NCBI GenBank assembly: GCA_963699255.1
Contig: OY969425.1
Coordinates: forward strand, 840,001 to 872,000
Length of the DNA: 32,000 nt
Reading direction: 5' to 3'
DNA from: an uncultured bacterium
GTDB taxonomy: Bacteria > Margulisbacteria > WOR-1 > CAVSGV01
Part shown: piece by piece, positions 10,801 through 32,000 of the stretch
Numbering within the stretch: position 1 is the stretch's first letter
How the letters are laid out: each line of letters starts with the position of its first letter
The notes under the pieces: model-generated
Seen by the model: only the letters and a program-made list of their open reading frames with translations
Told to the model about the DNA's origin: nothing
Databases searched by the model: none
Made by a program: the position numbers and the translations under genes

Positions 10801-10861
10801 GGCACCGGAGGCATGGTTCGTCCTTTACATATTGTTATACCTGTGGTAAATTACAGGCCAA

Positions 10862-12332: not shown

Positions 12333-12347
12333 TTTAACCTGCTCCCT

Positions 12348-12941: not shown

Positions 12942-13000
12942 TATTTTAACCCTCCATACACCTATATTATCGGGATATATAGCCAAAAACTTGCATGATA

Positions 13001-13098
13001 CCTCAACCCTAGCCCTTCTCCTATAAATAGGAGAAGGAAAACGAAACTTTGATTTGTTTTCCCTCTCCTGCTATGCAGGAGAGGGGTTAGGGGTGAGG
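13001..13098 (-). other. 98-nt element able to fold as a four-way junction (outer stem plus three hairpins) between gltD and the orphan gene pair
   Basis: The outer stem CCTCAACCCTA (13001-13011) pairs with TAGGGGTGAGG (13088-13098) at 10 of 11 positions. HP1 is CCTTCTCCTA/taaa/TAGGAGAAGG (13014-13037). The central hairpin is AAAAC...GTTTT (13038-13060). HP2 is CCCTCTCCTGC/tat/GCAGGAGAGGG (13061-13085). Confidence 0.5.
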
Positions 13099-13111
13099 TA
13101 GGAAATAAGTG

Positions 13112-19055: not shown

Positions 19056-19056
19056 T

Positions 19057-19278
19057 TTAACCGCTCCTGATCATACCGTATTTTTTAAGTTTTGACCTTA
19101 ATGTATTTCTGTTTATCCCGAGGATGTGCGCGGCCCTCATCTGATTGCCTTTCGTGTATTCCATTAACTTGATCAAAAGAGGTTTTTCCACCGAATCGGT
19201 CAAGAAGCGATATACCTTTCCCTCATTTTCCTTGAAGAAAAGCTCATTGATCTCTGATATTGCTTTTTCCAGATCCAT
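19057..19278 (-). CDS. Stand-alone Fis-family HTH DNA-binding protein (73 aa)
   Basis: VEKPLLIKLMEYTKGNQMRAAHILGINRNTLRSKLKKYGM closely mirrors the Fis/NtrC C-terminal HTH. ATG 19278 has SD GGGGGTGA (the track start is a GTG at 19287). Its stop lies 1 nt before the gltB ATG. Confidence 0.8.
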   Translation of the reverse strand: MDLEKAISEINELFFKENEGKVYRFLTDSVEKPLLIKLMEYTKGNQMRAAHILGINRNTLRSKLKKYGMIRSG

Positions 19279-19314
19279 CTTGATCACCCCCGCACGCGTG
19301 GCCTCCGAACGGAT

Positions 19315-19331
19315 TGCCTAAAAATCAGGCA
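19315..19331. promoter_or_regulatory. 17-bp palindromic operator, motif A copy 1 (TGCCTAAAAATCAGGCA), upstream of the fis-like-gltBD operon
   Basis: The half-sites TGCCT/AGGCA are perfect around an AT-rich 7-nt spacer. Related copies lie at 23306-23322 and 26252-26268. Confidence 0.5.
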
Positions 19332-19340
19332 GCCGCCCCC

Positions 19341-19370
19341 AAAAAAGAGCGAGACGTCGTTGTCCCGCTC
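19341..19370 (-). terminator. Intrinsic terminator of glnA (copy 1)
   Basis: On the - strand, GAGCGGGAC/aacgac/GTCTCGCTC forms a 9-bp stem with one mismatch, followed by TTTTTT. It starts 12 nt after the glnA stop. Confidence 0.7.
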
Positions 19371-19381
19371 CCCCGAACTTT

Positions 19382-20707
19382 TTACAGTATCGGGAAATAT
19401 TTCTTTATTTCATACTCGGTGACTTGGATCCTGAATTCATCCCATTCTTTTTTCTTGACCGATATGAATCTTGAAAAACTGTGCTCCCCGAGAACCTCTC
19501 TCAACAGCTCGCTTCCCTCAGCTAATTTAATGGCGTCTCCAAGGCTTGCCGGAAGCGATTTTATGCCTCCCTCCTGTCTCTCCTCTTCAGTAAGATGATA
19601 CAGGTTTAGCTCCATCGGGTCGGGCAGCTTATATCCCTCTTCAATGCCCTTTAATCCCGCTGAAAGCATTACCGCAAATTGCAGATAAGGATTCCCGGAT
19701 GGATCCGGGCATCTTAGCTCCATGCGGGTAGCGACTTCCTTGCCCGGCAGGTACATCGGGACCCTGACGAGAGCCGATCTGTTGCGCCTTGACCACGCGA
19801 TATAGACGGGAGCTTCGTAGCCGGGGACCAGTCTTTTATATGAATTGACCCATGGGGCAAGTACCGAGATTATTTCCGGAGCGTGCTTTAATATCCCCGC
19901 AATATATGACTTGCCCACATCAGACAAATGATATTTGTCCTTCGCGTCAAAGAAAGCATTGGCCTTTCCTTTGAACAACGACTGATGGCAGTGCATTCCG
20001 CTTCCGTTCTGGCCGAACAATGGCTTTGGCATGAAGGACGCGTATACGCCGTTCTTTGATGCTATTTCCTTGACGGTCAATCTATAAGTGACGACATTGT
20101 CAGCCATCTTAAGCCCGTCGTCATATCTCATATCGATCTCATGTTGGGACGGAGCAACCTCATGATGGGAATATTCAACATTTATCCCCAGCTTCTTAAG
20201 GCACAGGACGGTCTCTCTTCTCAGATCGGAGGCCATATCAAGCGGGGTCAGGTCAAAATATCCGCCTTCATCCAGTATTTCGGGACTCTGACCGTTCTTG
20301 AAATAGAAATATTCAAGTTCCGGCCCGACATAATAATGGTCAAACCCCATCTTCTTCATCTTTGCAAGCGCCCTCTTCAGGACATACCTCGGATCCCCTT
20401 CATAAGGCTTTCCTCCCGGCTGAAGTATATCGCATATCATCCTGGCTACCGCTTTCTCCTGCGGCCTCCATGGAAGGATCTGAAATGTATCCGGATCCGG
20501 CATAGCTATCATGTCCGACTCCTCGATCGCCTGGAAACCGGTAATTGAAGATCCGTCAAACCCCATTCCCTCCGTAAGCGCTCCCTCTAATTCATCCTTC
20601 CCGATCGCGAAACTTTTCAATATCCCGTTAATATCCGTGAACCAAAGCCTTATGAACTCAACATCATTATCCTTTACCGCTTTAAGTATTTCCTCTTTTG
20701 TTGTCAT
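19382..20707 (-). CDS. glnA: Glutamine synthetase, type I (short GSI-alpha-like form, 441 aa)
   Basis: Motifs include FTDINGILKSF, GFDGSSITGF, HHEVAPSQHEID, NGSGMHCHQSL, APWVNSYKRLVPGYEAP and NRSALVRVP. Confidence 0.95.
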   Translation of the reverse strand: MTTKEEILKAVKDNDVEFIRLWFTDINGILKSFAIGKDELEGALTEGMGFDGSSITGFQAIEESDMIAMPDPDTFQILPWRPQEKAVARMICDILQPGGKPYEGDPRYVLKRALAKMKKMGFDHYYVGPELEYFYFKNGQSPEILDEGGYFDLTPLDMASDLRRETVLCLKKLGINVEYSHHEVAPSQHEIDMRYDDGLKMADNVVTYRLTVKEIASKNGVYASFMPKPLFGQNGSGMHCHQSLFKGKANAFFDAKDKYHLSDVGKSYIAGILKHAPEIISVLAPWVNSYKRLVPGYEAPVYIAWSRRNRSALVRVPMYLPGKEVATRMELRCPDPSGNPYLQFAVMLSAGLKGIEEGYKLPDPMELNLYHLTEEERQEGGIKSLPASLGDAIKLAEGSELLREVLGEHSFSRFISVKKKEWDEFRIQVTEYEIKKYFPIL

Positions 20708-20734
20708 TTTTGTTCCCTCCTTGCCCTCAGTATT

Positions 20735-20750
20735 AGCAATTTTCTCTCCA
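20735..20750 (-). promoter_or_regulatory. Sigma-54 (-24/-12) promoter of glnA copy 1
   Basis: The - strand reads TGGAGAGAAAATTGCT, against the consensus TGGCACGNNNNTTGCW. GG and GC are at the exact consensus spacing, and the site lies about 28 nt upstream of the ATG and its SD GGAGGG. Confidence 0.65.
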
Positions 20751-20776
20751 AAAAATTTTTGCCGTATTAACGCGAA

Positions 20777-20785
20777 ATTATACCA
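20777..20785 (-). promoter_or_regulatory. Extended -10 sigma-70 promoter upstream of the glnA sigma-54 promoter
   Basis: The - strand reads TGGTATAAT (TGn plus a perfect TATAAT). I found no good -35. Confidence 0.45.
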
Positions 20786-20800
20786 GGATAATAATATAGT

Positions 20801-20848
20801 ATATACATTTATGTATTAATTTATATTAAATAATACAATTTTGTATTA
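20801..20848. promoter_or_regulatory. Two 18-bp palindromes (motif B) 30 bp apart; candidate enhancer or operator sites for glnA
   Basis: The palindromes are ATATACA-TTTA-TGTATTA (20801-20818) and TAATACA-ATTT-TGTATTA (20831-20848). Their centres lie about 86 and 116 nt upstream of the predicted sigma-54 TSS. Confidence 0.45.
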
Positions 20849-20850
20849 AA

Positions 20851-21189
20851 TTATATTGCAATAACTCCTGTTTCGCCTGTCCGTATCCTGACAATATAAG
20901 ATACATCCGATACAAAGATCTTTCCGTCGCCGATACTGCCTGTGGAACAGATAGAACATATCGTCTTTATGACGTCATCGACATCCTTATCAAGCAGCAC
21001 AAGTTCAAGCTTTACTTTAGGCAAAAATTCAACATTGTACTGGCCGACCCTCCACTCCAGCGTAATGCCCTTCTGTTTTCCTCTTCCTTTTACCTCGGTA
21101 ACGGTCATTCCATGAAACCCTTTCGCATCAAGCGCCTCCCTTAGCTCTTCCAGTTTTTCCGGGCGGATTATAGCTTCGACCTTCTTCAT
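20851..21189 (-). CDS. glnK: P-II nitrogen regulatory protein
   Basis: The 112-aa protein aligns end to end with GlnB/GlnK (MKKVEAIIRPEKL..TVTEVKGRGKQKG...GDGKIFV..V...RIRTGE), and T-loop Tyr51 is present. It sits directly downstream of amtB. Confidence 0.95.
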   Translation of the reverse strand: MKKVEAIIRPEKLEELREALDAKGFHGMTVTEVKGRGKQKGITLEWRVGQYNVEFLPKVKLELVLLDKDVDDVIKTICSICSTGSIGDGKIFVSDVSYIVRIRTGETGVIAI

Positions 21190-21205
21190 TTATCTCACCT
21201 CCTGT

Positions 21206-22420
21206 TTATAATACGCTTTCCGCGTGCTGGGATATATCCAGGCCGACAAGCTCTTCATTCTCCTTAACCCTCAACCCGACTAACATATCAACAGCCTTCG
21301 CAAGTACCAGCGTAACAACGAACGCAAAAGAAGCCGTAGCAACAACAGCAACAAGCTGCACCCATACCTGTCCCGGATTCCCAAAAATAAGGCCGTTCGC
21401 ACCGCCGGGATTTATCGCTTTGCTTGCAAAGATGCCTGTCGCGATAGCGCCCCACGCGCCGCCCATCCCATGGCATGCGAAAGCATCCAGCGATTCATCG
21501 ATCCTAAGGGTCATTCTCAGGACTATGACATAATAAGAAATCACGGAAGCAACCGCTCCTATTGCTATTGCTGAAAGCGGGTCCACAAAACCTGACGCCG
21601 GAGTGATAGCAACAAGCCCCACAACCGCACCCGTTGCAACACCAAGAACGCTTGGTCTTCTGTGTATCCAGCTCAGCAGCATCCACATTGTCGCCGCCGC
21701 AGCCGCAGCGGTATTGGTAACAACAAAAGCTGAAGCTGCGATCCCGTTGGCAGCCAGGGCGGATCCTCCGTTGAAGCCGAACCAGCCGAACCAGAGAAGT
21801 ACCGCGCCAAGAACAACGATCGGGATATTGCTCGGCTCCATGTTATCCTTTCCGTAGCCTTTTCTTTTTCCTATGATCAAAGCGATAGCCAGGGCTGACA
21901 TACCTGCCGTAACATGTACGACAGTGCCGCCGGCAAAATCAAGCGCTCCCAGAGTCCTGAGCCATCCGCCTACTCCCCAGACCCAATGGGCCACCGGATC
22001 ATAAACGATCGTTGCCCATAAAGCCGAGAACAAAAGGAATGAGGAAAATTTTATCCTTTCAACAAAAGCGCCCACTATCAATGAAGGGGTCACTATCGCG
22101 AAAGCCGCCTGGAATATCATAAAGACCAGGGCCGGAATGGTAGCCGCATAACCTACATCCGGGAGCTGTCCTACGCCTATCAAACCAAGATATTTAAAAT
22201 TACCGATTAAACCTCTTATTGTCGGACCAAAGGCCAGTGTATACCCGAAAAGCACCCATTGAAGGCTTATCACCATAAGGATCGCGAAACACATCATGAT
22301 CGTGGAAAGGATATTTTTCTTCCTTACCATGCCGCCGTAAAAGAAACCGACTGCCGGAGTCATTAATATTACCAGAGCTGCGGAAACAAGGACCCAAGCT
22401 GTATCTCCACTATTTATCAT
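21206..22420 (-). CDS. amtB: Ammonium transporter
   Basis: Amt family motifs are present ([31 protein letters not shown]). ATG 22420 has SD GGAGGAGG; the track start 22429 is a TTG. Confidence 0.95.
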
Positions 22421-22438
22421 TTTAACCAACCTCCTCCT

Positions 22439-23161
22439 TTATACATTTATATCAAGCTGCGTGGTCACGACAGGATTGGCCGAAGCACCCGGAGCATGCC
22501 CATTATTAAACGTGCCATAACCGAATATGACCGATGTGTTCGGAGCAAAAGCATATGAAAGCCCCCCGAACAACGCTCCATTTACGGAATAGCCGGATGC
22601 ATAATCGACGCAGGCCCAGATCTTATCGGTGATAGTTTTGTCCCAGGTAAAGATAAATCCGGTGCTCTGCGGGTCGCCGAATTCATCCACCAGAACGTCC
22701 CTGTTCCCCGAATAATAGCCGGCAGACAACCTTCCGATGCCGAAAGTCTTCGCCATGAGCGAGTAAACGATGTTCTGATCGGAGCTTTTCACGCCGTCCA
22801 GAGTGTCGAATCCGAAGTTGAAAAATCCAAGAGCCAAGGCGGGCAAAATGCTGCTTTCGGGGATGCCGTATTTCGCGTTGAATGTGAACTGGTTGGAACT
22901 GGGCAAGAAAGAATCGATGCCAAACTCAGCTCCTGGCAACAAACCATAAGTTAAATTTACGTCGGTCGGGAAAAAAGTCCCTCCAAAATTAGAGATCGGC
23001 CATGCCGTGGTAAAATAGCTATCTATTCCGAAGTGAACTGTCCCCAAAGCCTGGATGTCTGTTGACGGGTTCCATATTTGAGTTGATGGAGTGGCAAAGA
23101 CCGATCTTTGGAACGTCAGGCAGATAGCCGCAATGAACAATATTTTTAATGCCCTTCTCAT
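22439..23161 (-). CDS. Small outer-membrane beta-barrel (porin-like) protein, first gene of the amtB-glnK operon
   Basis: It has a signal peptide (MRRALKILFIAAICLTFQRSVFA) and alternating aromatic/Gly-rich strands (GLSYAFAPNTSVIFGYGTF). I prefer ATG 23161 (SD GGAGGAAGGTGA); an alternative in-frame ATG is at 23197. The stop lies 18 nt before the amtB start. Confidence 0.6.
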   Translation of the reverse strand: MRRALKILFIAAICLTFQRSVFATPSTQIWNPSTDIQALGTVHFGIDSYFTTAWPISNFGGTFFPTDVNLTYGLLPGAEFGIDSFLPSSNQFTFNAKYGIPESSILPALALGFFNFGFDTLDGVKSSDQNIVYSLMAKTFGIGRLSAGYYSGNRDVLVDEFGDPQSTGFIFTWDKTITDKIWACVDYASGYSVNGALFGGLSYAFAPNTSVIFGYGTFNNGHAPGASANPVVTTQLDINV

Positions 23162-23240
23162 CTGGTTTTTCACCTTCCTCCGAAAATGCTTTTTCATCTT
23201 CTTTCTTGTTCTTTGATAACATGATGTCGATCAGTAAAGT

Positions 23241-23256
23241 AGCAATTTTCTTGCCG
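23241..23256 (-). promoter_or_regulatory. Sigma-54 (-24/-12) promoter of the porin-amtB-glnK operon
   Basis: The - strand reads CGGCAAGAAAATTGCT, with GG and GC at consensus spacing. It shares GAAAATTGCT with the glnA sigma-54 promoter. Confidence 0.7.
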
Positions 23257-23305
23257 AAGGGCTTTTGTGCTTAAAGAGGCCGAAAATCTGACAAGCGCGT
23301 GGATC

Positions 23306-23322
23306 TGCCTAAATTTTAAACA
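23306..23322. promoter_or_regulatory. Motif A copy 2 (TGCCTAAATTTTAAACA), about 60 bp upstream of the -24 element of the amtB sigma-54 promoter
   Basis: It shares TGCCT and the TAAATTTTA core with 26252-26268; the right half-site is degenerate. It overlaps the stop codon of the activator gene. A motif B-like ACAATATTGT follows at 23323-23332. Confidence 0.45.
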
Positions 23323-24827
23323 ACAATATTGTAATTCTTTATCTTGTAACCGAGCATTCTTTCGGTGATGCCGAGGGCTTTCGCGGCGGATTTCTGGGTC
23401 TTGTATTTTGCGAGGGCGTCGACGATGCGCTGTTTTTCTATCGATCCGATCAGCGCCGGAAGCGTCATACCTTCGGGCGTGATACTGACTTCTGACGGCT
23501 TCTGAAGGCTTACCGGAAGCTCCGACTGTGATATCAGCTCTTTCCTGCACAGGACCACGGCTCTCTCTATGACATTCTCAAGCTCCCTCACATTACCGGG
23601 CCAGCTGTAAGATAAGAGCATATCAAGAGCGGCACGGTTTATTCCCTTTATCTTCTTCTTGTTCTCTTTGGCGTATTTTTCTATAAAGTGATCGGCGAGG
23701 AGAGGGATATCCTCTTTCCTGTCCCTTAGCGGAGGCAGGATCACCGGAAAAACATTAATGCGGTAATACAGGTCTTCACGGAACCGCCCATCGCGCACCA
23801 TTTTCTCAAGATCCCTGTGAGTGGCGCATATCACTCTCACATCCACTTTTATGGTCTGCGTCCCGCCAAGCCTTTCGAATTCCTTCTCCTGCAGGACCCT
23901 CAACAATTTAACCTGGGTGGAAAGCGACATATCGCCGATCTCGTCAAGGAAAAGCGTCCCGCTGCTTGCCAGTTCGAACCTTCCGGGTTTCCTTTCAAGC
24001 GCTCCTGTAAATGCGCCTCTTTCATATCCGAAAAGTTCCGATTCAAGCAGGTTCTCGGGAAGCGACGCGCAGGCGACTTTGATGAAGGGTTTATCGGCCC
24101 TCGGGCTTGAATAATGAATGGCTGAGGCGACCATTTCCTTTCCCGTGCCGGATTCGCCTGTAATAAGGACCGTTGCCTGTGATTCCGCCACCTGAGCTGC
24201 GATGCTGAAGACCGAAGCCATAAGAGGCGAACTGTAGATCATATTGCCGAATTTGTATTTGCCTTTCAGCTCCTGCCTCAGCTTGATGTTCTCGGATACC
24301 ACAGCCTGCTTTTCTTTTTCCGCAAGCTCCCTTATCTTCACCGCCTGTCCCACCATTGAAGCGATAATAGTAAGGAGCTTAACGTCCTCTTCATAAGAAA
24401 TATCGCCCTTGAAAAGATGGTCCGCGGAAAGAGCGCCTATGACCTTGTTCCCGACCTTGATAGGGACGCAGAGGAAGGCATATTTCCGCGCTTCCAGGTC
24501 CCTCGCTTTTGTCTTATTGAGAAATGACGGGTCAGCGCCAACATCCTTAATTACCATCGGAAGTCCCGTCTCGACGACTTTGCCTGTGATCCCTTCGCCT
24601 ATTTTGTAGCGTCCCCTTTCTTTTTCCTGCACCGAGAGTCCCTGCGCTACTTCAATATGAAGCTCGTTCGTATTCGGATCCACCAGCGTTATTGTGCCTC
24701 TCTGCATTTCAAGGGAGTCGGATAGGACCTGAAGGATGGATTCCAAGGCTTGCTGCAGGTTAAGAGCCGAAGCAAGGGCTTCGCTTATCTCAACGAGTAC
24801 TTTTACCTTTATGTCCCTTGTAGGCAT
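23316..24827 (-). CDS. Sigma-54-dependent transcriptional activator with an N-terminal GAF domain (NifA/NtrC-family bEBP)
   Basis: The domain order is a GAF region, an AAA+ domain with GESGTGKE, GAFTGA and a Walker B (LFLDEIGD), and a C-terminal Fis-type HTH (KSAAKALGITERMLGYKIKNY). Confidence 0.92.
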   Translation of the reverse strand: MPTRDIKVKVLVEISEALASALNLQQALESILQVLSDSLEMQRGTITLVDPNTNELHIEVAQGLSVQEKERGRYKIGEGITGKVVETGLPMVIKDVGADPSFLNKTKARDLEARKYAFLCVPIKVGNKVIGALSADHLFKGDISYEEDVKLLTIIASMVGQAVKIRELAEKEKQAVVSENIKLRQELKGKYKFGNMIYSSPLMASVFSIAAQVAESQATVLITGESGTGKEMVASAIHYSSPRADKPFIKVACASLPENLLESELFGYERGAFTGALERKPGRFELASSGTLFLDEIGDMSLSTQVKLLRVLQEKEFERLGGTQTIKVDVRVICATHRDLEKMVRDGRFREDLYYRINVFPVILPPLRDRKEDIPLLADHFIEKYAKENKKKIKGINRAALDMLLSYSWPGNVRELENVIERAVVLCRKELISQSELPVSLQKPSEVSITPEGMTLPALIGSIEKQRIVDALAKYKTQKSAAKALGITERMLGYKIKNYNIVV

Positions 24828-24835
24828 ACTACATT

Positions 24836-24864
24836 ATTGTAGTATGTTAATACATTTTTGTCAA
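24836..24864 (-). promoter_or_regulatory. Sigma-70 promoter of the sigma-54 activator gene; predicts a leaderless or nearly leaderless mRNA
   Basis: The - strand reads TTGACA, 17 nt, TACAAT, then only 8 nt before the ATG. There is no SD. Confidence 0.6.
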
Positions 24865-24868
24865 GAAG

Positions 24869-26209
24869 CTATAATGTTTCTAGGTATTTGTCGATCTCCC
24901 ATGGCGTTATCTGCATCCTGTAGTCATCGAACTCCGCAGCCTTTGCCGCGACAAAATGTTCAAAAGCGTGCTTGCCAAGCGCCTGTTTCACAACCTCATC
25001 CTTTTTAAGCTCTTCCACGGCTCTGGCAATAGAAAAAGGAAGCATGTCTATCTTGTATTCGTTAAGTTTGGCCTGGTCGAATTCATAAACGTCCTCTTCC
25101 ACGGGTTTTGGAGGCTTCATTCCCCTCTTTATTCCATCAAGGCCGGCATAAAGCATCACGGCAAATGCAAGATAAGGATTGCAGGAAGGATCGGGGCATC
25201 TGAGTTCAAGCCTTGTTGACTGCTCCCTTCCCGGAGAGTATCTCGGTATCCTTATAAGCGCTGACCTGTTGATCTGCGCCCAGCAGATATATACAGGGGC
25301 TTCATATCCGGAAACAAGCCTTTTGTATGAGTTCACCGTAGGCGCGAGGATGGAAGTAAGAGCTTTTGCATGGAAAAGCTCCCCGGCCATGAAATTATAG
25401 GCGATCTCGGATAGTTTGTATTTATCTTTGGCGTCAAAGAAAGCGTTCTTTTCACCCTTGAACAAAGATTGATGGACGTGCATTCCGCTGCCGGCCTGTT
25501 TATAGAGCGGCTTCGGCATGAACGAAGCATACAGCCCGTGGTCCGAGGCAATGGACTTTATCACATACTTGAGCGTTATCGTATTATCGGCAGAAGAAAG
25601 CGCATCGGAATATTTGACGTCTATTTCGTGCTGGCCGGGACCGCATTCGTGGTGCGACATCTCCGGGACCATTCCCATCTTCTCCAGAGCAAAGATTATA
25701 TCTTCGCGCACGTCGCTGGCAAGGTCCTTCGCCGGATAATCAAAATAACCTCCGATATCGTGAGGGGTGGTCGTGATGCGCCCGTCGTCTTTTTTCATGA
25801 GATAGAACTCCACTTCAGGGCCTGTATAGAACGCGAATCCAAGTTTACCGGCTTCGGCGACCGCCCTTTTCAGTATCGATCTCGGGTCGCCTTCAAAAGG
25901 CTCACCTTCAGGCGTATGAACGTCGCATATGAAGCGGGCGGATTCCTTGCCCTCCACCTTCCACGGTATGATCTGGTAAGTATTCGGGTCAGGAACAAGG
26001 ATCATGTCAGATTCGCATATCCTGACAAATCCCTGTATGGAGGAGCCATCGAACCATATGCCCTTATCAAGGATGTCGGATAGCCTTTCCACGGGGACCG
26101 TCACGCTTTTGATCATTCCCAGAATATCGGTGAACTGAAGAAAAATGAATTTGATCTTGTCGGACTTTGCTTTTGCCAGAACTTCCTTGGCCAGTGCGGA
26201 TAACGCCAT
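24869..26209 (-). CDS. glnA: Glutamine synthetase, type I, second paralog (446 aa)
   Basis: It carries the same GSI motifs as copy 1 (WFDGSSIQGF, HHECGPGQHEID, AGSGMHVHQSL, APTVNSYKRLVSGYEAP, NRSALIRIP), with SD AAGGGAGG. Confidence 0.95.
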   Translation of the reverse strand: MALSALAKEVLAKAKSDKIKFIFLQFTDILGMIKSVTVPVERLSDILDKGIWFDGSSIQGFVRICESDMILVPDPNTYQIIPWKVEGKESARFICDVHTPEGEPFEGDPRSILKRAVAEAGKLGFAFYTGPEVEFYLMKKDDGRITTTPHDIGGYFDYPAKDLASDVREDIIFALEKMGMVPEMSHHECGPGQHEIDVKYSDALSSADNTITLKYVIKSIASDHGLYASFMPKPLYKQAGSGMHVHQSLFKGEKNAFFDAKDKYKLSEIAYNFMAGELFHAKALTSILAPTVNSYKRLVSGYEAPVYICWAQINRSALIRIPRYSPGREQSTRLELRCPDPSCNPYLAFAVMLYAGLDGIKRGMKPPKPVEEDVYEFDQAKLNEYKIDMLPFSIARAVEELKKDEVVKQALGKHAFEHFVAAKAAEFDDYRMQITPWEIDKYLETL

Positions 26210-26240
26210 ACTAACGCCTCCCTTTATTTTAGATGTTTTG

Positions 26241-26269
26241 ATTATATAATATGCTTAAATTTTAGGCAA
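26241..26269 (-). promoter_or_regulatory. Sigma-70 promoter of glnA copy 2, with motif A copy 3 embedded at 26252-26268
   Basis: The - strand reads TTGCCT, 17 nt, TATAAT. The palindrome TGCTTAAATTTTAGGCA (+ strand) covers the -35 element and most of the spacer. Confidence 0.65.
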
Positions 26270-26274
26270 TCGGA

Positions 26275-26310
26275 ATAAAAAACGGCGCCCCGGCATATTG
26301 TCGGGGCGCC
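26275..26310 (-). terminator. Intrinsic terminator of gdhA
   Basis: The - strand forms a perfect 9-bp GC stem, GGCGCCCCG/acaatatgc/CGGGGCGCC, followed by GTTTTTTATT. Confidence 0.85.
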
Positions 26311-26332
26311 GCATACTTACCTGGGACCTTTT

Positions 26333-27670
26333 CTACACTAAACCCTGGTCGAGCATTGCATCGGCAACTTTTATGAACCCGGCTATGTTCGCGCCGTCCA
26401 TGTAATTAATGAAGTCACCCTGTTTCCCCTGTTTGACGCAATTCTCATGGATATTGATCATTATCTCATGAAGTCTCTTGTCGACTTCTTCCCTGCCCCA
26501 GCTCAACCTCATGCTGTTCTGGCTCATCTCGAGCCCCGATGTCGCCACTCCTCCGGCATTCGCCGCTTTTGCCGGTCCGTAAAGGATCTTTGCCTTAAGG
26601 TAGACCTCGATCGCTTCCGGGGTTGACGGCATGTTCGCGCCTTCCGCAACGCACATGCATCCATTCTTAATGAGAGCTTCCGCATCGGCGCCGCTCACTT
26701 CGTTCTGCGTCGCGCACGGGAGAGCTATGTCGCATTCGATATGCCACGGCCTTTTCCCTTCCAGGAATTGGCATCCGTACTTATTGGCATATTCTTTTAT
26801 TCTGCCCCTCTTATTGTTCTTGAGATCCAGCACGTATGCCAGCTTTTCTTCGGTTATCCCATGCGGATCATGGACCGTTCCGTGCGAGTCTGATAATGTA
26901 ATGACCTTTGCCCCAAGCTGCATCGCCCTTTCAGCCGCATACTGAGCGACATTGCCGGAACCGGAGATCGTAACCGTTTTACCCTTGAACGACTGTTTCC
27001 TGGTCTTGAGCTGTTCTTCGGCAAAATAAACCAGGCCGTATCCGGTCGCTTCCGGCCTTATCAGGCTTCCGCCCCAGCCAAGCCCCTTTCCTGTCAGAAC
27101 GCCGGTAAATTCATTCCTCAGTCTCTTGTACTGGCCGTACATGAAACCTATTTCTCTTCCTCCAACGCCAATATCACCGGCCGGGACATCCGTGTCCGGA
27201 CCGATGTGCTTGGAAAGCTCCGTCATGAAGCTCTGCAAGAATCTCATTACTTCGTTATCCGACTTGCCCTTCGGGTCAAAATTGGATCCGCCTTTTCCTC
27301 CGCCCATCGGGAGCGTGGTCAGGCTGTTCTTGAAAACCTGCTCGAATCCCAGGAATTTCAACAGACCAAGATAAACCGTGGGATGCAAACGAAGTCCCCC
27401 TTTATATGGCCCTATGGCGCTGTTGAATTCCACCCTGTATCCTTTATTTACCTGTACTTCTCTGCTGTCATCCATCCACGGCACCCTGAACATTATCACT
27501 CTTTCCGGCTCCACTATCCTCTCGAGTATCTTTGCTTTTTCATATTTCGGGTTCTTTTCCAGGAACGGAAGAAGCGATTTCACTACTTCCTCTACAGCCT
27601 GATGGAACTCCGGCTCCCCAGGATTATCCGCAACTAACTTACTCATAAAAGCTTTTACTTTTGTCGCCAT
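26333..27670 (-). CDS. gdhA: Glutamate dehydrogenase (hexameric, NADP-type family)
   Basis: Motifs include KGGLRLHP, LPMGGGKGGS (catalytic Lys region) and the Rossmann motif GSGNVAQYAA. SD is AAAGGAGAG. Confidence 0.95.
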   Translation of the reverse strand: MATKVKAFMSKLVADNPGEPEFHQAVEEVVKSLLPFLEKNPKYEKAKILERIVEPERVIMFRVPWMDDSREVQVNKGYRVEFNSAIGPYKGGLRLHPTVYLGLLKFLGFEQVFKNSLTTLPMGGGKGGSNFDPKGKSDNEVMRFLQSFMTELSKHIGPDTDVPAGDIGVGGREIGFMYGQYKRLRNEFTGVLTGKGLGWGGSLIRPEATGYGLVYFAEEQLKTRKQSFKGKTVTISGSGNVAQYAAERAMQLGAKVITLSDSHGTVHDPHGITEEKLAYVLDLKNNKRGRIKEYANKYGCQFLEGKRPWHIECDIALPCATQNEVSGADAEALIKNGCMCVAEGANMPSTPEAIEVYLKAKILYGPAKAANAGGVATSGLEMSQNSMRLSWGREEVDKRLHEIMINIHENCVKQGKQGDFINYMDGANIAGFIKVADAMLDQGLV

Positions 27671-27690
27671 TTTTTCTCTCCTTTTCTGTC

Positions 27691-27746
27691 AATAAAAAAC
27701 GCCTCCGCTTAATCAAAACCTCATTGTCTTAATTAAACGTAAGGCG
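27691..27746 (-). terminator. Leader terminator (attenuator) inside the gdhA 5' UTR
   Basis: The - strand sequence CGCCTTACGTTTAATTAAGAC/AATGAG/GTTTTGATTAAGCGGAGGCG forms about 19 bp with two single-nt bulges, followed by TTTTTTATT. It ends 20 nt before the gdhA ATG, and I see no promoter between it and the ATG. Confidence 0.7.
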
Positions 27747-27782
27747 CCGTTGCCCGACATTTATTTGATCTATACAGTAGAT

Positions 27783-27811
27783 ATTTTATTAAAACCGGGG
27801 ATGATTGTCAA
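27783..27811 (-). promoter_or_regulatory. Sigma-70 promoter of gdhA
   Basis: The - strand reads TTGACA, 17 nt, TAAAAT. The predicted TSS is near 27776, giving a leader of about 105 nt. Confidence 0.65.
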
Positions 27812-27818
27812 ATAATAT

Positions 27819-28580
27819 TTATTGCGGGTTTGCTTCCTGCGCGGATATCAGCTCTTCGGCGATCTCTTTCATGGATTTTCTGCTGTCCATGCTCTGTTTT
27901 TGCAGCTTCCTGTAAGCCTCTTCCTCAGACAGCCCTTCACTTTTCATGATCATGCCCTTTGCTTTCTCGGTCAGCTTTCTTTCCTCCAGCCTTACGGCGA
28001 GCATTTCCTTCTCTTCTGCAAGCTTCCTGTTCGATATCGCTATCGCCGCCTGATTCGCGACCGCGGAAACAAGCCTGATCTCGCCGGCGGTGAACTTGTG
28101 CGGCCTGGAAGTGTAGCTGTTCAATACCCCAATAGCCTTTCCTTTCACGATGAGAGGGACCGCAAGCATTGAACAGAGTTTTTCTTTTTTTGCTATCTCC
28201 GGGAACATGTAATCCGGTTCCTTTTTTACGTCAAGCACCGTTATCGGCTTTTTTTTGCTGACCGCCTTCCCGCTGATCGACTGGCCGACCTTTACATTCG
28301 GCTTGTCTGTGTAACTATCGCTTAAGCTCTGCGTGGCGGCAAGCCGGAGCTCTTTCTCGTTTTCACTTAGCAACATCAGGGAGCATATCTTGGAGCCCAT
28401 GACCTCAGCCGTCATCGCGACAATTATCTTCAGGATATCATCAAGGTACATGTCCGAAACGATGGCGGTGCTTACCTTGCCAAGAGTTTCAATTTCTTTT
28501 TGGAGCGATCGGGATGATTTTGTCATTGATATATTTCCTAAATTTTCCCTGACGATAGATTGGCTGGGAACTCGAGTCAT
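27819..28580 (-). CDS. GAF-ANTAR RNA-binding antiterminator-type regulator
   Basis: The GAF region is LDDILKIIVAMTAEVMGSKICSLMLL...GKAIGVLNSY. The C-terminal ANTAR domain is ERKLTEKAKGMIMKSEGLSEEEAYRKLQKQSMDSRKSMKEIAEELI. ATG 28526 (SD AGGAAA) is an alternative start. Confidence 0.85.
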   Translation of the reverse strand: MTRVPSQSIVRENLGNISMTKSSRSLQKEIETLGKVSTAIVSDMYLDDILKIIVAMTAEVMGSKICSLMLLSENEKELRLAATQSLSDSYTDKPNVKVGQSISGKAVSKKKPITVLDVKKEPDYMFPEIAKKEKLCSMLAVPLIVKGKAIGVLNSYTSRPHKFTAGEIRLVSAVANQAAIAISNRKLAEEKEMLAVRLEERKLTEKAKGMIMKSEGLSEEEAYRKLQKQSMDSRKSMKEIAEELISAQEANPQ

Positions 28581-28640: not shown

Positions 28641-28684
28641 CTACCGATACTGTGACTTAGCCGGGGAGTTTCACAGTATCCCTC
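28641..28684. repeat. Inverted pair of the 19-bp CGGnTAnTTCACAGTATC site (left cluster)
   Basis: GATACTGTGA (28646-28655) and TCACAGTATC (28671-28680) are perfect 10-bp inverted repeats 15 bp apart, centred on CCGG. The flanks match the right-hand copies. Confidence 0.7.
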
Positions 28685-28694
28685 TATATACGAT

Positions 28695-28747
28695 ACGCGT
28701 ACACAGGCACGTACGCACGAGCGCAGGCGCGCGGCCAAGCGCGCACT
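28695..28747. other. GC-rich tract of about 53 bp with almost continuous purine-pyrimidine alternation
   Basis: Alternating runs are ACGCGTACACA, CACGTACGCACG, GCGCA, GCGCGCG and GCGCGCAC. The tract includes the hairpin GCGCGC/ggccaa/GCGCGC (28727-28744) and abuts an AT-rich stretch (28750-28815). Confidence 0.5.
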
Positions 28748-29324
28748 AGGTATTTATTAATTAATATAATACGTATTCATTTGTACAGTTGATTGATAGC
28801 TGTTGTTCATTAGCATTAGAGAAAGACAAAGGATCAATGACTTTGGATATGAACACGAACAGAAGACAGAAGAACCTGACCCAAAGAGTTGAAGACACGC
28901 TGAGAGCTTGAAGTTATTGCTGTTCACACAGCCAAAGAAGCTTTCGGGATCCTCGAAAAGAAGAAGCTCATTGTCCCGCTACGCTGGACGGGACAAGCTG
29001 TCCGTCACAAAGATTGTTCGACTCGTGGCTCTTGAGGAACGTTCCCTGCCACGATGGGCCCGCCAAAGGCCAAGGCAGGCGAAGCTGGTCTGTCTGCTTA
29101 ATCTGAGCGTTTCCAGAGCGGAATGAAGGCATTCCTTGAGCCTCCTCAAGTGATTGCTCATTGTATTTCTGTGTTGCTTTTTCCATGGTTCCGCCAAAGG
29201 AGAATGACCAACTACCAATGAACAATGCCCCCGCCTTCGCCGAGGCTTCCGCCAGAGGCGGACAAGTCGACAGGCAGGTAATTAAGGTGTGCTACGCACA
29301 TTCAAAGGAGAAAGACCATAACTC

Positions 29325-29453
29325 CTGCTCCGCCTCCGGCGGTATTTGACTTTGTGTCATGCCGCCCGCCAATGCCCGCCAAAGAAAAGAACCAAAGCTA
29401 CTGCTCCGCCTTCGGCGGTATTTGTCTTCGTGTTGTGCCGCGCCGCCCGCCAA
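29325..29453 (+). repeat. Two direct repeats of about 50 bp, each starting with a small GC hairpin
   Basis: Copy A (29325-29372) is CTGCTCCGCCTCCGGCGGTATTTGACTTTGTGTCATGCCGCCCGCCAA. Copy B (29401-29453) is CTGCTCCGCCTTCGGCGGTATTTGTCTTCGTGTTGTGCCGCGCCGCCCGCCAA. Each has a CCGCC/GGCGG hairpin followed by TATTTG. Confidence 0.7.
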
Positions 29454-29541
29454 ACCACTCCCAAAATGATTGGGGAAAGAATCCGCAAAACCAAGCATGA
29501 AAAATGAGCAAAAACTGATGAAATCCTGAGGCCAAAAACAA

Positions 29542-29602
29542 GCGGTTACTTCACAGTATCCTACCGGGTATTCCACAGTATCGAGCGGTTAGTTCACAGT
29601 AA
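29542..29602 (+). repeat. Three phased direct copies of the 19-bp site (right cluster), abutting the promoter of 29639-31108
   Basis: The copies are GCGGTTACTTCACAGTATC (29542-29560), CGGGTATTCCACAGTATC (29565-29582) and GCGGTTAGTTCACAGTAAG (29584-29602). The CACAGTA cores start at 29552, 29574 and 29595, a spacing of 22 and 21 bp. Confidence 0.75.
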
Positions 29603-29603
29603 G

Positions 29604-29632
29604 TTGACTTTTTAAGCCCCAAGGGTGATAAT
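29604..29632 (+). promoter_or_regulatory. Sigma-70 promoter predicting a leaderless mRNA for 29639-31108
   Basis: TTGACT (29604-29609), 17 nt, then GATAAT (29627-32). The seventh nt after the -10 element is the A of ATG 29639, and there is no SD. Confidence 0.55.
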
Positions 29633-29638
29633 TCCCCC

Positions 29639-31108
29639 ATGATTGAAGAGCTTGAATACTTAACTTTGAATGAAATGAAAGCTTTACTCAATTCCATCGA
29701 CGACACCCGCGACCGGGCAATTATTGCTCTATTTCTTAATACGGGCCTCTTCTTGAACGAGGTAACCTCCCTGAAAGTCGACTCAATCGACTGGAAGAAA
29801 AAGTCACTTTCCGTCCCCGGCAACAGGAAAAGAACTATCCCACTGAATGACCAGGTTTTTGAGGCGCTTGCCAAGTGGTCGAAAGAGCGTCCGTCGGGCA
29901 AGATTCCCGATCTTTTTGTCACCACAAAAGGAGAGCTGAAAGACCTCAGCAGCCGCGGCGTCGATTATCTGATAAGAAAGTACGCTGAACAGGCTGGCAT
30001 AAAGAAACGGGTTAATCCGCAGATACTTCGCAATACATTTGCGGTCCGGTTATTCTCAGAAGAACCCTCCGTGGAAAAAGCTTCTGCCATTCTGGGTATA
30101 TCCGATCCGGAATCGGTAAATCGCTATATACAGGCCTCCAAGCGACCGCCGGCCAAGGTCGAGATAACTGAAAAGCTTGAGCATATCGATACCCGCCATC
30201 CTCTTGTTAAAGCCGTTTCCAAGATGTTCCCTACTAAGCCGAAAATCGTTAAGCCAACGACCGCAATAAAAGGCGCTATTACCCCAAGCCCCGAAGAAGT
30301 GATTTTCGGCAGAGAGAATATAATCAGCGATATAAAAGCTGATATCGGCAAAAGCCAGTCTGTTCTATTGACAGGTCCTTTGGGGATAGGCAAAACACAT
30401 CTATTGAAGCACATGTCCAAAGCGTTGGGGCCTAATACATTATATATCTCTTCTCCCACTCCGCTAAAGATTGTCCTTACGCAAATTCTCAACAAGCTTG
30501 ATCCTGCATGGCAGGAGCAATTAAATACAAGAGCTTCAACGAAAGAGATAGCCGATTACATCGTGAAAATAAAGGGCGCAAAGCCCCCTATCCTGATAAT
30601 CGACAATTTGAACAACATAAAAATATCGGATATCGACCCTATCTTGACCTTACTGGATAACTTCCCCATACTTGCCGCGGCTGACGAGACAAAACCGAAG
30701 CTCAAACAGGTCTGGTGGAAGTTCAAGGAGATCGAGCTTCCGCCGTTAAAAGAGGATTCCTCGAAGGAGCTTATCAAATACCTGACGCAGAACCTAACTA
30801 TCAGCGATTATGAAATGCTTGAAACAAGGATATTGACCCTGTCAAACGGCCTTCCCCTTGCAATCGTTGACATGATCCATCAGATAAGCCATATCCCGAT
30901 GGTTTCAAAAGATGTTATTCGTGATGTTTACCACGAAGCCGGAATACATTATCGCGACTGGACAACCGTTATAATTTTCATTTACTGGATAGCTGTCATT
31001 TTCAGGTTCGTCGCGCTTGGCACAAAAAGTTATGAGGCCTATTTTCTCGCCGGTTTCGGCGTGACTCTTTTGATGATCTTAAGAAATGTTATGTCGATGT
31101 TGAAATAA
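29639..31108 (+). CDS. Fusion protein: degenerate tyrosine-recombinase-like domain, then a STAND/NB-ARC-like P-loop NTPase, then two C-terminal TM helices
   Basis: The N-terminal about 165 aa follow the integrase catalytic-domain pattern, but TGLFLNEV replaces TGLRxSE, QILRNTFA replaces HxLRHTFA and LGISD replaces LGH; the RYIQ Tyr is kept. The middle region has FGRE...LLTGPLGIGKTHLL, ILIIDNLN, FPILAAAD, IELPPL and NGLPLAI. The C-terminus is WTTVIIFIYWIAVIFRFVALG...FLAGFGVTLLMIL. Confidence 0.65.
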   Translation: MIEELEYLTLNEMKALLNSIDDTRDRAIIALFLNTGLFLNEVTSLKVDSIDWKKKSLSVPGNRKRTIPLNDQVFEALAKWSKERPSGKIPDLFVTTKGELKDLSSRGVDYLIRKYAEQAGIKKRVNPQILRNTFAVRLFSEEPSVEKASAILGISDPESVNRYIQASKRPPAKVEITEKLEHIDTRHPLVKAVSKMFPTKPKIVKPTTAIKGAITPSPEEVIFGRENIISDIKADIGKSQSVLLTGPLGIGKTHLLKHMSKALGPNTLYISSPTPLKIVLTQILNKLDPAWQEQLNTRASTKEIADYIVKIKGAKPPILIIDNLNNIKISDIDPILTLLDNFPILAAADETKPKLKQVWWKFKEIELPPLKEDSSKELIKYLTQNLTISDYEMLETRILTLSNGLPLAIVDMIHQISHIPMVSKDVIRDVYHEAGIHYRDWTTVIIFIYWIAVIFRFVALGTKSYEAYFLAGFGVTLLMILRNVMSMLK

Positions 31109-31112
31109 GAAT

Positions 31113-31397
31113 ATGCCTATCAGCACAAACCTAAATAAGATTGATAAATATTATAAAACTTGGGCTAAATGCTCTACCGTTCTCTCGGAGCATTGGTGTG
31201 ATGAAAACAGATTTTATGCTTTTATAAAATCAATAATCAGATATACCAGGAGTAAATCAAAATATAGTAGCAATTGGCTTGCTGACAAGCTTAGAAAAGA
31301 CAATTTTAAAGAGGATTTCATCGAAAAACATGTCCGTAAATATGAGGTTATTAGACATTATTTAGATGCTCCTTTTTATCGGGAGGAATACAAATAA
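31113..31397 (+). CDS. Hypothetical small basic protein (94 aa), markedly AT-rich gene
   Basis: The ORF starts 4 nt after the upstream stop, and its own stop abuts the next start (TAAATG). I recognise no family. By eye its GC content is clearly below that of its neighbours. Confidence 0.4.
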   Translation: MPISTNLNKIDKYYKTWAKCSTVLSEHWCDENRFYAFIKSIIRYTRSKSKYSSNWLADKLRKDNFKEDFIEKHVRKYEVIRHYLDAPFYREEYK

Positions 31398-32000
31398 ATG
31401 CTCGCCCCAACTCATAGCGTATTTGGTATCTTTTTAACGCTGATATTCCTGGCAGTGTTCGGGATTCAGTGGGGTCTTCATTGGACGATAATTCTTGTCG
31501 CTATTTTTGGCGCGATCGTTCCCGACATCGACCACCCCCGCTCCGTCATAGGAAAGCTATTCCCTTTTATCTCCATTCCCCTTGAGCGCAAATACGGCCA
31601 TCGAACGATAACCCATTCATTCATCGGCTGGGCTATCTTCACCGCCATTTTCGCTTTAATTGTTCTATTTGCAGCTTTGATCTTTGGATTCATTTTTAAG
31701 TTTGATGCTTGGATTTGGGAATTAGCGCCAAGATGGACAGCTGCATTCTCGATCAGCTACATGTCTCATTTAATATTGGATATGTTCAACCGGCGCGGCA
31801 GCCAGATGTTCTGGCCGGACACCAGCAGAGACGTTATCCCGAAAAATCCGAAGTTCAGGCCTGAATCGGGATCAAGCGGTGAATTACTGATCTTCTTTAT
31901 TCTCTTCGTACTGATGCTCTTTGCTTTTCCGATCTCCAAATACGGGATAGCAAGTTCGCTTCGCTGGCTTATGGCTACCCCCGGATCAGCCATCAAGGAG
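31398..32000 (+). CDS. Membrane-bound metal-dependent hydrolase of the DUF457/YdjM family; 3' end lies outside the window
   Basis: This ORF is not in the track because it runs off the window. Translation gives MLAPTHSVFGIFL...IVPDIDHPRS...GHRTITHSFIGW...SYMSHLILDMFNRRGSQMFWP. The His/Asp motifs and multi-TM layout match YdjM-like proteins. Confidence 0.7.
   Translation, partial: MLAPTHSVFGIFLTLIFLAVFGIQWGLHWTIILVAIFGAIVPDIDHPRSVIGKLFPFISIPLERKYGHRTITHSFIGWAIFTAIFALIVLFAALIFGFIFKFDAWIWELAPRWTAAFSISYMSHLILDMFNRRGSQMFWPDTSRDVIPKNPKFRPESGSSGELLIFFILFVLMLFAFPISKYGIASSLRWLMATPGSAIKE

Follow-up and report, generated by a model that had tools for sequence, protein, structure and literature searches.

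A conserved fusion of a degenerate tyrosine-recombinase domain, a STAND-like NTPase module and a membrane hairpin is a candidate membrane-tethered regulator of variable gene islands in Margulisbacteria

We analyzed a 32,000-nucleotide stretch of DNA from an uncultured bacterium of the Margulisbacteria (GTDB lineage WOR-1; CAVSGV01), positions 840,001 to 872,000 of contig OY969425.1 (hereafter the window), and found near its right end a gene for a fusion protein that we call C0. C0 joins a tyrosine-recombinase catalytic-domain fold that has lost most of its active site to a P-loop NTPase module and a C-terminal membrane hairpin. The fusion is conserved and under purifying selection, it heads a gene unit with two conserved partners, C1 and C2, and its promoter carries an array of repeated DNA sites. 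We favor, at a probability of roughly 0.4, the reading that C0 has been exapted to bind DNA from the membrane under nucleotide control and so to regulate or tether its own operon.

The N-terminal part of C0 has the fold of a tyrosine recombinase. The Pfam model Phage_integrase (PF00589) matched residues 7-168 over profile positions 2-170 of 172 (E = 1.7e-23). In the AlphaFold model of C0 (predicted local distance difference test score, 81.8), the best Foldseek match of the N-terminal domain was XerA (5hxy). HMMER alignments to XerA (4a8e and 5hxy) and XerD (1a0p) placed Phe38 at Arg-I (GLFLNE in C0 versus GLRVSE), Gln127 at His-II and Asn132 at the following His (PQILRNTFA versus PHxLRHxFA), and Ile154 at His/Trp-III (LGISD versus LGHSx), with Arg-II (R131) and Tyr163 retained. 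A MAFFT alignment with XerD gave the same substitutions and put Pro60 at the position of the catalytic Lys172. The catalytic set R-K-H-R-H/W plus Tyr reads F38, P60, Q127, R131, I154 and Y163 in C0, with four of the six residues replaced. Every integrase substitution proposed in a first-pass annotation of this DNA was borne out by the residue alignments to XerA and XerD. That annotation had also named a way in which it could be wrong, namely that the catalytic residues are present in a shifted register. Within three residues of the lost positions, however, there was no Arg, His or Lys except R63/K64/R65 of a beta-hairpin, and therefore no shift of register can restore the active site. Judged by its sequence, this is an integrase-like domain without the residues needed for cleavage.

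C0 also scored far below the NCBIfam equivalog cut-offs of its best matches, XerA (111 of 220 bits), XerC (74 of 335) and XerD (70 of 330), and reached 34.7 against a cut-off of 265 with the integron-integrase model. The catalytic domain begins at residue 7, with no N-terminal core-binding (SAM-like) domain before it, and the same is true of relatives with an intact active site. At the other end of the protein, hydrophobic segments at residues 440-463 and 469-488 coincide with two long modeled helices, in agreement with the two transmembrane helices predicted earlier.

A protein database search with C0 returned 180 proteins at E ≤ 1e-5. Among the 120 matches listed, identity to C0 was 43-93%, and nearly all were full length (~485-500 residues). 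The named sources were mostly Candidatus Margulisiibacteriota, WOR-1 or Saganbacteria, and two were labeled Patescibacteria/Parcubacteria. By exact look-up, the sequences of C0 from the window and of P0002 were not on record. The complete C0 architecture with the same substitutions recurred in more than 150 protein clusters from many assemblies, which establishes the fusion as genuine and excludes a frameshift or assembly artifact. In an alignment of 113 sequences, R24 and R131 were invariant, Y163 was nearly so, and the basic residues R63, R65, R84, K97, R106 and K114 were kept in at least 90%. The hairpin residues R456 and E466 were invariant as well. Position 38 was never Arg, and positions 38, 127 and 154 were never jointly canonical.

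The closest relative of C0 is encoded at a locus designated L008 and is 87% identical to it. Between these two proteins, the ratio of nonsynonymous to synonymous substitution rates (dN/dS) was 0.079 for the recombinase domain, 0.094 for the NTPase and 0.052 for the membrane hairpin; a comparison of loci L003 and L015 gave 0.05 and 0.036. Values of about 0.05-0.09 in each domain indicate that C0 is functional and not decaying, and that the dead recombinase domain is under strong purifying selection. At another close relative, L029, C0 is split into three open reading frames and C1 into two (10001-13200), which reflects either a decaying copy or indel errors in long-read assembly. Public databases name members of the family 'tyrosine-type recombinase/integrase' (NCBI) or, often, 'EcfA2' energy-coupling factor transporter ATP-binding protein or 'DnaC' (JGI), and neither set of names reflects the fusion architecture. 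A phage origin was considered and rejected: the GenBank phage collection contained no match, a search of IMG/VR with the family likewise found none, and BFVD held no structure matching C1.

The second part of C0 combines features of two NTPase groups. Pfam AAA_22 matched residues 240-339 above its curated cut-off, and AAA_16 fell just under its own. NACHT and nSTAND models matched at the P-loop only (NACHT, 16.1 versus 26.7; nSTAND6, 18 versus 27.7), NB-ARC gave no Pfam match on the window protein, and no STAND Pfam model reached its cut-off there. Across 26 family members, AAA_22 was found in all 26, AAA_16 in 23, NACHT in five and NB-ARC in one. Motifs of the STAND series are nevertheless present. 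With hhGRExE and GLPL/GxP defined as in PMC4581296, C0 has VIFGRENI at residues 220-227 (R225 invariant and G224 in at least 90% of the 113 sequences) and NGLPLAI at residues 403-409 (GNPRAI or GNPLAI in distant relatives). Walker A is GPLGIGKT. Walker B is ILIID322-N323, that is, D-N rather than D-D/E, and this form predominates among proteins with dead and with intact active sites.

C0 thus shares the hhGRExE linker motif, the P-loop and the GLPL/GxP motif with STAND/NB-ARC proteins. Unlike them, it has Asn as the second Walker B residue, is anchored in the membrane and lacks further domains. In the AlphaFold model, the GLPL helix and the first transmembrane helix are only ~30 residues apart, and therefore C0 has no winged-helix/ARC2 domain. 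C-terminal sensor repeats (TPR, WD40 or LRR) are also absent from C0, whose C-terminus is the membrane hairpin. Foldseek scored clamp-loader RFC/RuvB AAA+ folds and NRC NB-ARC folds about equally. The STAND label given at first is therefore supported in part, by the motifs but not by the domain layout or the Pfam cut-offs, and the fold comparison favors neither group. Given this mixed evidence, we term the NTPase a minimal STAND-like/AAA+ switch module; it is not a canonical STAND protein. A juxtamembrane block, YHEAGxxYRDW (residues 430-441; nucleotides 30926-30961), contains the near-invariant His432, which is also kept in intact relatives from Bacteroidota. This residue might play the role of the MHD His in NB-ARC nucleotide sensing, despite the missing ARC2.

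The gene for C0 is preceded by three phased direct copies of the site CGGTTAnTTCACAGTA, at 29541-29601. The site motif has six occurrences in the window, where 1.35 were expected, and each of 100 shuffles yielded fewer than six, so the three copies noticed in the first pass are real and non-random. Homologous loci had arrays of two to four direct sites at 21-22-bp spacing. In divergent loci the consensus was about GGGTWnnTCGCAATA, with CACAGTA replacing CGCAAT in the clade of the window. A position-weight scan of both strands found 30 matches in 3.6 kb of -160 to -20 regions, versus 184 in ~397 kb. At four loci where extra genes precede C0 (L001, L009, L012 and L016), the array lies upstream of the operon's first gene, and therefore it belongs to the operon promoter. 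At L009, L012, L016 and L026, the first gene after the array encodes a staphylococcal-nuclease-type protein (SNase; ~157-162 residues), a semi-conserved extra member of the operon.

The same site occurs as an inverted pair, with members at 28648-28662 (-) and 28664-28678 (+) and half-sites ~1 bp apart. Nucleotide homology of the window to L008 and L029 starts at 28646, exactly at this pair. The same inverted pair was found upstream at L001, L007, L008, L026 and L029. L008 and L029 share the pair-plus-triplet layout of the window, and the inverted pair of L001 lies ~0.7 kb upstream of its array. A conserved block (ATCCCTCTATATA; in distant loci ATCCCTMTATATA; overall ATCCCT(C/A)TATATA; 28678-28700 in the window) directly follows the inverted pair. 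It is present at the corresponding position of L001, L003, L007, L008 and L029, loci that otherwise diverge, and may be the -10 element of a second promoter, one controlled by the sites and directed into the spacer.

The last direct site abuts or overlaps the -35 box of a sigma-70-type promoter, TTGACT-17-GATAAT, which ends 6 nucleotides before the C0 ATG; no Shine-Dalgarno sequence precedes this ATG. TATAAT-like hexamers 5-8 nucleotides before the ATG recur in divergent homologous loci, which supports the earlier prediction of a leaderless start. These features are consistent with a leaderless C0 mRNA.

Between the inverted pair and the direct array lies a non-coding spacer of 0.7-0.9 kb across loci. 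We found no Rfam match in it even at E ≤ 1, no tRNA and no conserved open reading frame, and tblastn detected no primase-helicase relic in the spacer or in Margulisbacteria-type loci. The spacer of the window contains two tandem 76-nucleotide repeats (29305-29441) that are 80% identical and form hairpins at 29325-29342 and 29406-29418. In each repeat, a hairpin of the form CCGCC-loop-GGCGG precedes a run of T on the + strand, a terminator-like arrangement just upstream of the direct array, which suggests that an unannotated rightward transcript ends here. A replication origin was also considered, as suggested by a strand switch, phased DnaA-box-like repeats and an AT-rich block. We ruled out oriC: GC skew follows the coding strand, and the unit is multi-copy and variably placed.

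We surveyed the neighborhoods of 37 loci from GTDB genomes and metagenomes and clustered their open reading frames. Gene order was fixed: C0, zero to five variable genes, C1, zero to two variable genes, C2 and then variable cargo, mostly co-oriented. The genes downstream of C0 run in its direction with small gaps between them. C1 is a protein of ~435 residues with an N-terminal YdjM/DUF457 membrane hydrolase domain, represented by 31 sequences in 30 loci. It is truncated in the window, and a homologue search with the truncated form gave mostly fragments; full-length orthologues are encoded at L008 and other loci. The C-terminal half of C1 was modeled as a beta-domain and a long alpha-hairpin, and the adaptors MacA and AcrA were among its weak Foldseek matches (best adaptor E ~0.3, none at E ≤ 0.001). 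C2, found in 21 loci, is a protein of ~180 residues that combines a signal peptide, a Wza-type Poly_export domain and a transmembrane segment at its C-terminus. C1 and C2 are the conserved partners of C0. The 'three-gene unit' described at first is therefore correct as a gene order, with its first and third genes being conserved partners, and incorrect for its middle gene, a 94-residue open reading frame that is a variable cassette. At L008 the same slot holds a 72-residue coiled-coil open reading frame unrelated to it, and at other loci it holds an HD-domain protein, DUF2254, Bro-N or 23S-rRNA-IVS proteins, or nothing.

Three loci with 90-93% nucleotide identity (L003, L014 and L015) differ solely by insertions at the C0-C1 and C1-C2 junctions and beyond C2. 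L003 carries two cassettes for 23S-rRNA-intervening-sequence proteins (PF05635; 9459-9934 and 11246-12044), precisely at the C0-C1 and C1-C2 junctions. One is bounded by a perfect 11-bp inverted repeat (TGTCCGACGTC / GACGTCGGACA) and the other by ~70-bp G/T-rich direct repeats, and both look like small self-contained insertion modules.

At most loci, the C0 unit heads a variable island rich in defense-type genes. The cargo includes MmeI-type and type I restriction-modification systems, N6_N4 and EcoRI methylases, GmrSD, OLD/Gabija-like proteins, SNF2 and SF1 helicases, T5orf172, Schlafen-like proteins and BrxL. Some genomes contain two to four paralogous units. At the far end of the C0-headed island of L001 lie a gene for a large serine recombinase and an adjacent helix-turn-helix gene (15588-17114). 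On the left, the unit of the window borders a nitrogen-assimilation cluster (11832-28580, - strand), which ends 65 bp from the unit and encodes glutamate synthase (GOGAT) large and small subunits, two glutamine synthetases (GlnA), an ammonium transporter (Amt), an NtrC-like GAF-sigma54 activator, glutamate dehydrogenase (GDH) and a GAF-ANTAR regulator. Table 1 gives the features of the unit.

Table 1. Positions of the C0 unit and its parts within the window
Feature	Position	Strand	Remarks
C0 fusion protein, 489 amino acids	29639..31108	+	ATG start; dead tyrosine-recombinase domain, NTPase, membrane hairpin
C0 tyrosine-recombinase catalytic-domain fold, residues 7-168	29657..30142	+	Pfam, alignments, Foldseek
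C0 P-loop NTPase, residues 220-435	30296..30943	+	hhGRExE, Walker A, Walker B, GLPL, then conserved YHEAGxxYRDW
C0 two-helix membrane hairpin, residues 440-488	30956..31102	+	hydrophobicity, model; invariant R456, E466
Inverted (head-to-head) site pair, 15-17-bp site	28646..28680		left edge of conserved unit
Non-coding spacer, ~0.86 kb, inverted pair to direct array	28681..29540	+	two tandem 76-nucleotide repeats inside
Three phased direct site copies	29541..29603	+	spacing 22 and 21 bp; abut -35 box
Sigma-70-type promoter	29604..29632	+	ends 6 nucleotides before ATG
94-amino-acid open reading frame	31113..31397	+	variable cassette slot between C0 and C1; not conserved in family
C1, N-terminal part (YdjM/DUF457 membrane metal-hydrolase domain)	31398..32000	+	cut by window end

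A search with the NTPase-transmembrane half of C0 alone against 1.8 billion representative proteins returned 362 relatives, comprising ~500-residue forms with an N-terminal integrase domain and ~300-residue forms without one. Distant ~500-residue forms (P0174, P0219, P0181 and P0187) have an intact active site (R, HxxRH, H and Y). Intact active sites were present in 132 of 282 fusion proteins and degenerate ones in ~150, and nearly all integrase-bearing members have Arg-II and Tyr. By NTPase-transmembrane similarity, the degenerate proteins are nearest to C0 and the intact ones more distant. These data are consistent with the dead form being one derived clade within a wider family that has intact relatives.

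Intact forms are abundant in Bacteroidota, where they are again followed by a long YdjM protein. The two occur together on plasmids pA5BP1 (Flavobacterium), pTS (Spirosoma) and pHALHY01 (Haliscomenobacter). On pA5BP1 they are annotated as 'site-specific integrase' (WP_255495033.1) and 'metal-dependent hydrolase', and on pHALHY01 the fusion lies two genes from Rep. The plasmids with intact fusions are typed 'non-mobilizable', have no known relaxase and carry iteron-rich DNA next to the fusion. A Dyadobacter chromosome carries another intact fusion in integrated form, accompanied by cassettes and by toxin or methylase genes as cargo, and one from a different lineage has DnaA_N and Exo_endo_phos neighbors. 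In addition, a 9,544-bp contig was assembled twice (L091 / L092; GCA_002059165.1; JGI 3300039804), the two versions being circular permutations of one sequence whose ends overlap by 127 bp, which indicates a circular element of ~9.4 kb. This circle encodes a VapE-type primase-helicase, an intact recombinase-NTPase-transmembrane protein, a YdjM-type protein and small open reading frames. It has an iteron-rich region with ATCTTACCT / AGGTAACT in both orientations, and no capsid genes were recognized on it.

The intact Bacteroidota fusions resemble C0 in their three-part architecture, in the GRE, Walker A, D-N Walker B and GxP motifs, and in the His before the transmembrane hairpin. They also share its YdjM-type partner, its repeat-rich upstream DNA and the presence of cassettes between the two genes. 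Unlike C0, they keep all catalytic residues, and they reside on replicons or beside a VapE-type primase-helicase or Rep gene, whereas no Margulisbacteria-type locus surveyed had a primase-helicase. The Bacteroidota elements examined have no C2 partner, their repeats are 8-10 bp long and in both orientations, and the proteins are only 25-31% identical to C0 in the NTPase-transmembrane part. The link to mobile elements suspected in the first pass is thus upheld by plasmids and a small circular element, and members of the fusion family probably act in the biology of plasmids or islands.

How might a recombinase without cleavage residues have been retained? In the reading we favor, the ancestor would have been a recombinase/NTPase/membrane-hairpin fusion that, together with a long YdjM-type protein, resided on small plasmids and integrative elements. 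The Margulisbacteria-type clade lost the cleavage chemistry (Arg-I, Lys-beta, His-II and His/Trp-III), while purifying selection maintained the fold together with Arg-II, Tyr and the basic residues that contact DNA. Among the conserved proteins of the unit, a DNA-binding fold is confined to C0, since C1 and C2 are membrane or secreted proteins, and the sites track the operon promoter; we therefore propose C0 as the site binder. The dead domain would recognize 17-19-bp sites, both in the three phased copies, which lie on one helix face and abut the -35 box, and in the inverted pair, which marks the border of the unit ~0.9 kb upstream. Oligomerization of the STAND/AAA+-like module, dependent on NTP, would then gather these sites into a nucleoprotein complex held at the inner membrane, with assembly controlled by the nucleotide state. 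This complex would activate or repress the co-directional operon, whose genes encode C0, the YdjM-type protein and the Wza-like Poly_export protein along with exchangeable cassettes and co-oriented, defense-rich cargo. It would also hold the locus at the membrane, where C1 and C2 would have a role in the envelope.

Several known systems resemble parts of this proposal. ToxR and CadC are membrane-tethered transcription factors with a winged-helix domain, a single transmembrane helix, a periplasmic sensor and no NTPase; like the proposed C0, they place a DNA-binding domain at the inner membrane and act on promoter-proximal repeats. STAND NTPases include transcription regulators such as MalT and AfsR/SARP-type proteins, which couple a DNA-binding domain to a nucleotide switch in a manner comparable to C0. 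With SARP-type activators, direct repeats adjoin the -35 box, as they do in the C0 promoter. A parallel to the recombinase domain is YopR of phage SPbeta, a tyrosine-recombinase fold that has lost recombinase function, kept the Tyr and become a DNA-binding repressor, with SPbeta integration left to a separate serine recombinase, SprA (bioRxiv 10.1101/2022.10.21.513154). C0 has the recombinase fold, the replacement of most catalytic residues and the retained Tyr in common with YopR and, to judge by the conserved site arrays, may bind DNA as well. YopR differs in having both core-binding and catalytic domains, in being soluble and in having no NTPase or membrane anchor, and we claim no sequence relationship between the two.

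Several considerations weigh against the regulator-or-tether reading. Another host factor could bind the sites, and C0 has no N-terminal core-binding domain, with which the clamp around DNA is normally closed. With a D-N Walker B, ATP hydrolysis may be slow or absent. That Arg-II and Tyr have been kept could point to some remaining chemistry, and not to binding alone. Finally, the reading leaves the spacer and the inverted pair unexplained, and regulation by itself accounts neither for the constant co-inheritance of the YdjM-type and Wza-like proteins nor for the multiple paralogous units in some genomes.

If C0 were instead an anti-phage or abortive-infection STAND protein of the Avs type, one of the possibilities raised in the first-pass annotation, its dead recombinase domain would sense invading DNA or recombination intermediates, its NTPase would oligomerize, and the membrane hairpin, YdjM hydrolase and Poly_export protein would damage the envelope. 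The hhGRExE and GLPL motifs, the Foldseek matches to NB-ARC resistosomes and the restriction-modification, OLD/Gabija-like, GmrSD, SNF2, BrxL and Schlafen-like genes of the islands are in keeping with this, and membrane-spanning segments are common effectors in defense systems. PADLOC and NCBIfam models, however, matched C0 at the P-loop only (best PADLOC matches at residues 225-272; Avs4, 18.8 bits versus a cut-off of 1500). Apart from P-loop similarity and a defense-island neighborhood, C0 does not resemble Avs/AVAST proteins: it is much smaller, and it has neither their effector/sensor layout nor sensor repeats or a winged-helix domain. Its own promoter contains dedicated conserved sites, and proximity to defense genes is equally expected for the backbone of any mobile element. 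Moreover, intact relatives adjoin replication genes on plasmids and on the 9.4-kb replicon, which suggests a role in maintenance or DNA handling. The defense explanation fits the neighborhood and the motifs, yet none of the membership searches we ran placed C0 in this class, and we consider it unlikely.

C0 could also serve a mobile island as an accessory factor in recombination or as an atypical recombinase. It would synapse the inverted pair and direct repeats in the manner of a res/IRS site and promote excision, integration or the exchange of cassettes, relying on what chemistry Arg-II and Tyr still allow or on a catalytic partner acting in trans. In Tn4430, the internal resolution site of TnpI combines an inverted core pair with direct accessory repeats (PMC2847244), and the gene for this tyrosine recombinase adjoins its composite site, much as the C0 gene does. 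TnpI is catalytically active, though, and its core and accessory motifs are contiguous ('adjacent') rather than ~0.9 kb apart. Mobility would account for a unit that, from the inverted pair to C2, is ~80-93% identical at the nucleotide level in differing flanks, for its two to four copies in some genomes and for cassettes that differ precisely at the gene junctions of near-identical units. Arg-II and Tyr are conserved in nearly all members of the fusion family, and the serine recombinase at the island end of L001 recalls SPbeta, where SprA coexists with the inactive YopR. Against such a role, the four replaced catalytic positions are incapable of acid-base or transition-state chemistry, and the inverted half-sites lie too close together for a normal crossover region of 6-8 bp. 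The cassette junctions are likewise too tight for att-like sites. A search for transposon-like ends found no target-site duplication, no terminal inverted repeat and no right-border copy of the site. Taken together, these observations make a recombination role distinctly doubtful.

Tyrosine-recombinase-type relaxases such as MobK and MpsA provide the model for a further alternative, in which C0 would be the DNA-handling part of an envelope-spanning transfer or secretion device. Its membrane NTPase would serve as a coupling protein and C1 and C2 as a periplasmic/outer-membrane conduit, with only DNA docking remaining in the Margulisbacteria clade. Relaxases of this kind exist (PMC8152469, PMC9299015), and intact fusions occur beside iteron-rich DNA on 'non-mobilizable' plasmids that have no known relaxase. 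The signal peptide and Wza-type domain of C2, and the beta-domain and alpha-hairpin of C1, would suit a conduit, but the adaptor likeness of C1 is not significant and C2 is absent from the Bacteroidota elements examined. In addition, the NTPase is of the AAA_22/STAND type and not an FtsK/VirD4-type translocase, and the dead clade could not nick DNA by the standard mechanism. We regard a transfer device as very unlikely. Last, C0 might be a XerC/D-type recombinase of the ordinary kind, or an integrase pseudogene in decay, with an assembly or frameshift error behind the fusion. This has in its favor only the public annotation and the split copy at L029, and it is refuted by the family survey of more than 150 independent clusters with the full architecture and by the low dN/dS in all domains. 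The Xer equivalog scores and the absence of the catalytic residues in any register also speak against it.

In the literature searched, we found no paper describing the fusion or its pairing with YdjM, in line with the first-pass annotation, which knew of no described system of this kind. Each part has known counterparts, among inactive DNA-binding proteins with a recombinase fold, STAND/AAA+ switches and membrane-tethered regulators. Their combination appears to be undescribed, as do the head module of three conserved genes, the architecture of the sites and the evolutionary series from intact to dead forms. A broader and rather improbable extension is that small replicons and integrative elements with this fusion and its YdjM partner form a class of their own that has not been described, whose DNA would be handled at the membrane by an anchored recombinase, or a recombinase-type relaxase/coupling protein, under NTP control. 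The Margulisbacteria-type clade would then be a domesticated, dead version, a platform near the promoter that tethers and expresses co-oriented, exchangeable cassettes of mostly defense genes, in effect an integron-like expression platform without an active integrase. Integrons and pipolins, the latter being reservoirs of defense genes (PMC11551731), likewise have a conserved recombinase-family gene and adjacent sites heading co-oriented, exchangeable and often defense-related genes. The C0 unit differs from these platforms in its dead integrase-like gene, which is co-oriented with the cargo, and in carrying cassettes between conserved genes as well. It has no piPolB and no attC-like repeats, for which the cassette junctions leave no room.

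The fusion family is widespread, with more than 2,000 database matches in Bacteroidota alone. If the regulator reading is correct, C0 would show that, independently of YopR, a tyrosine recombinase has for a second time become a regulator that binds DNA, in this instance with a nucleotide switch and a membrane anchor attached. The existence of both intact and dead forms offers a natural experiment on a recombinase fold stripped of its chemistry, and the conserved head module would provide a practical marker for variable, defense-rich islands in poorly known phyla.

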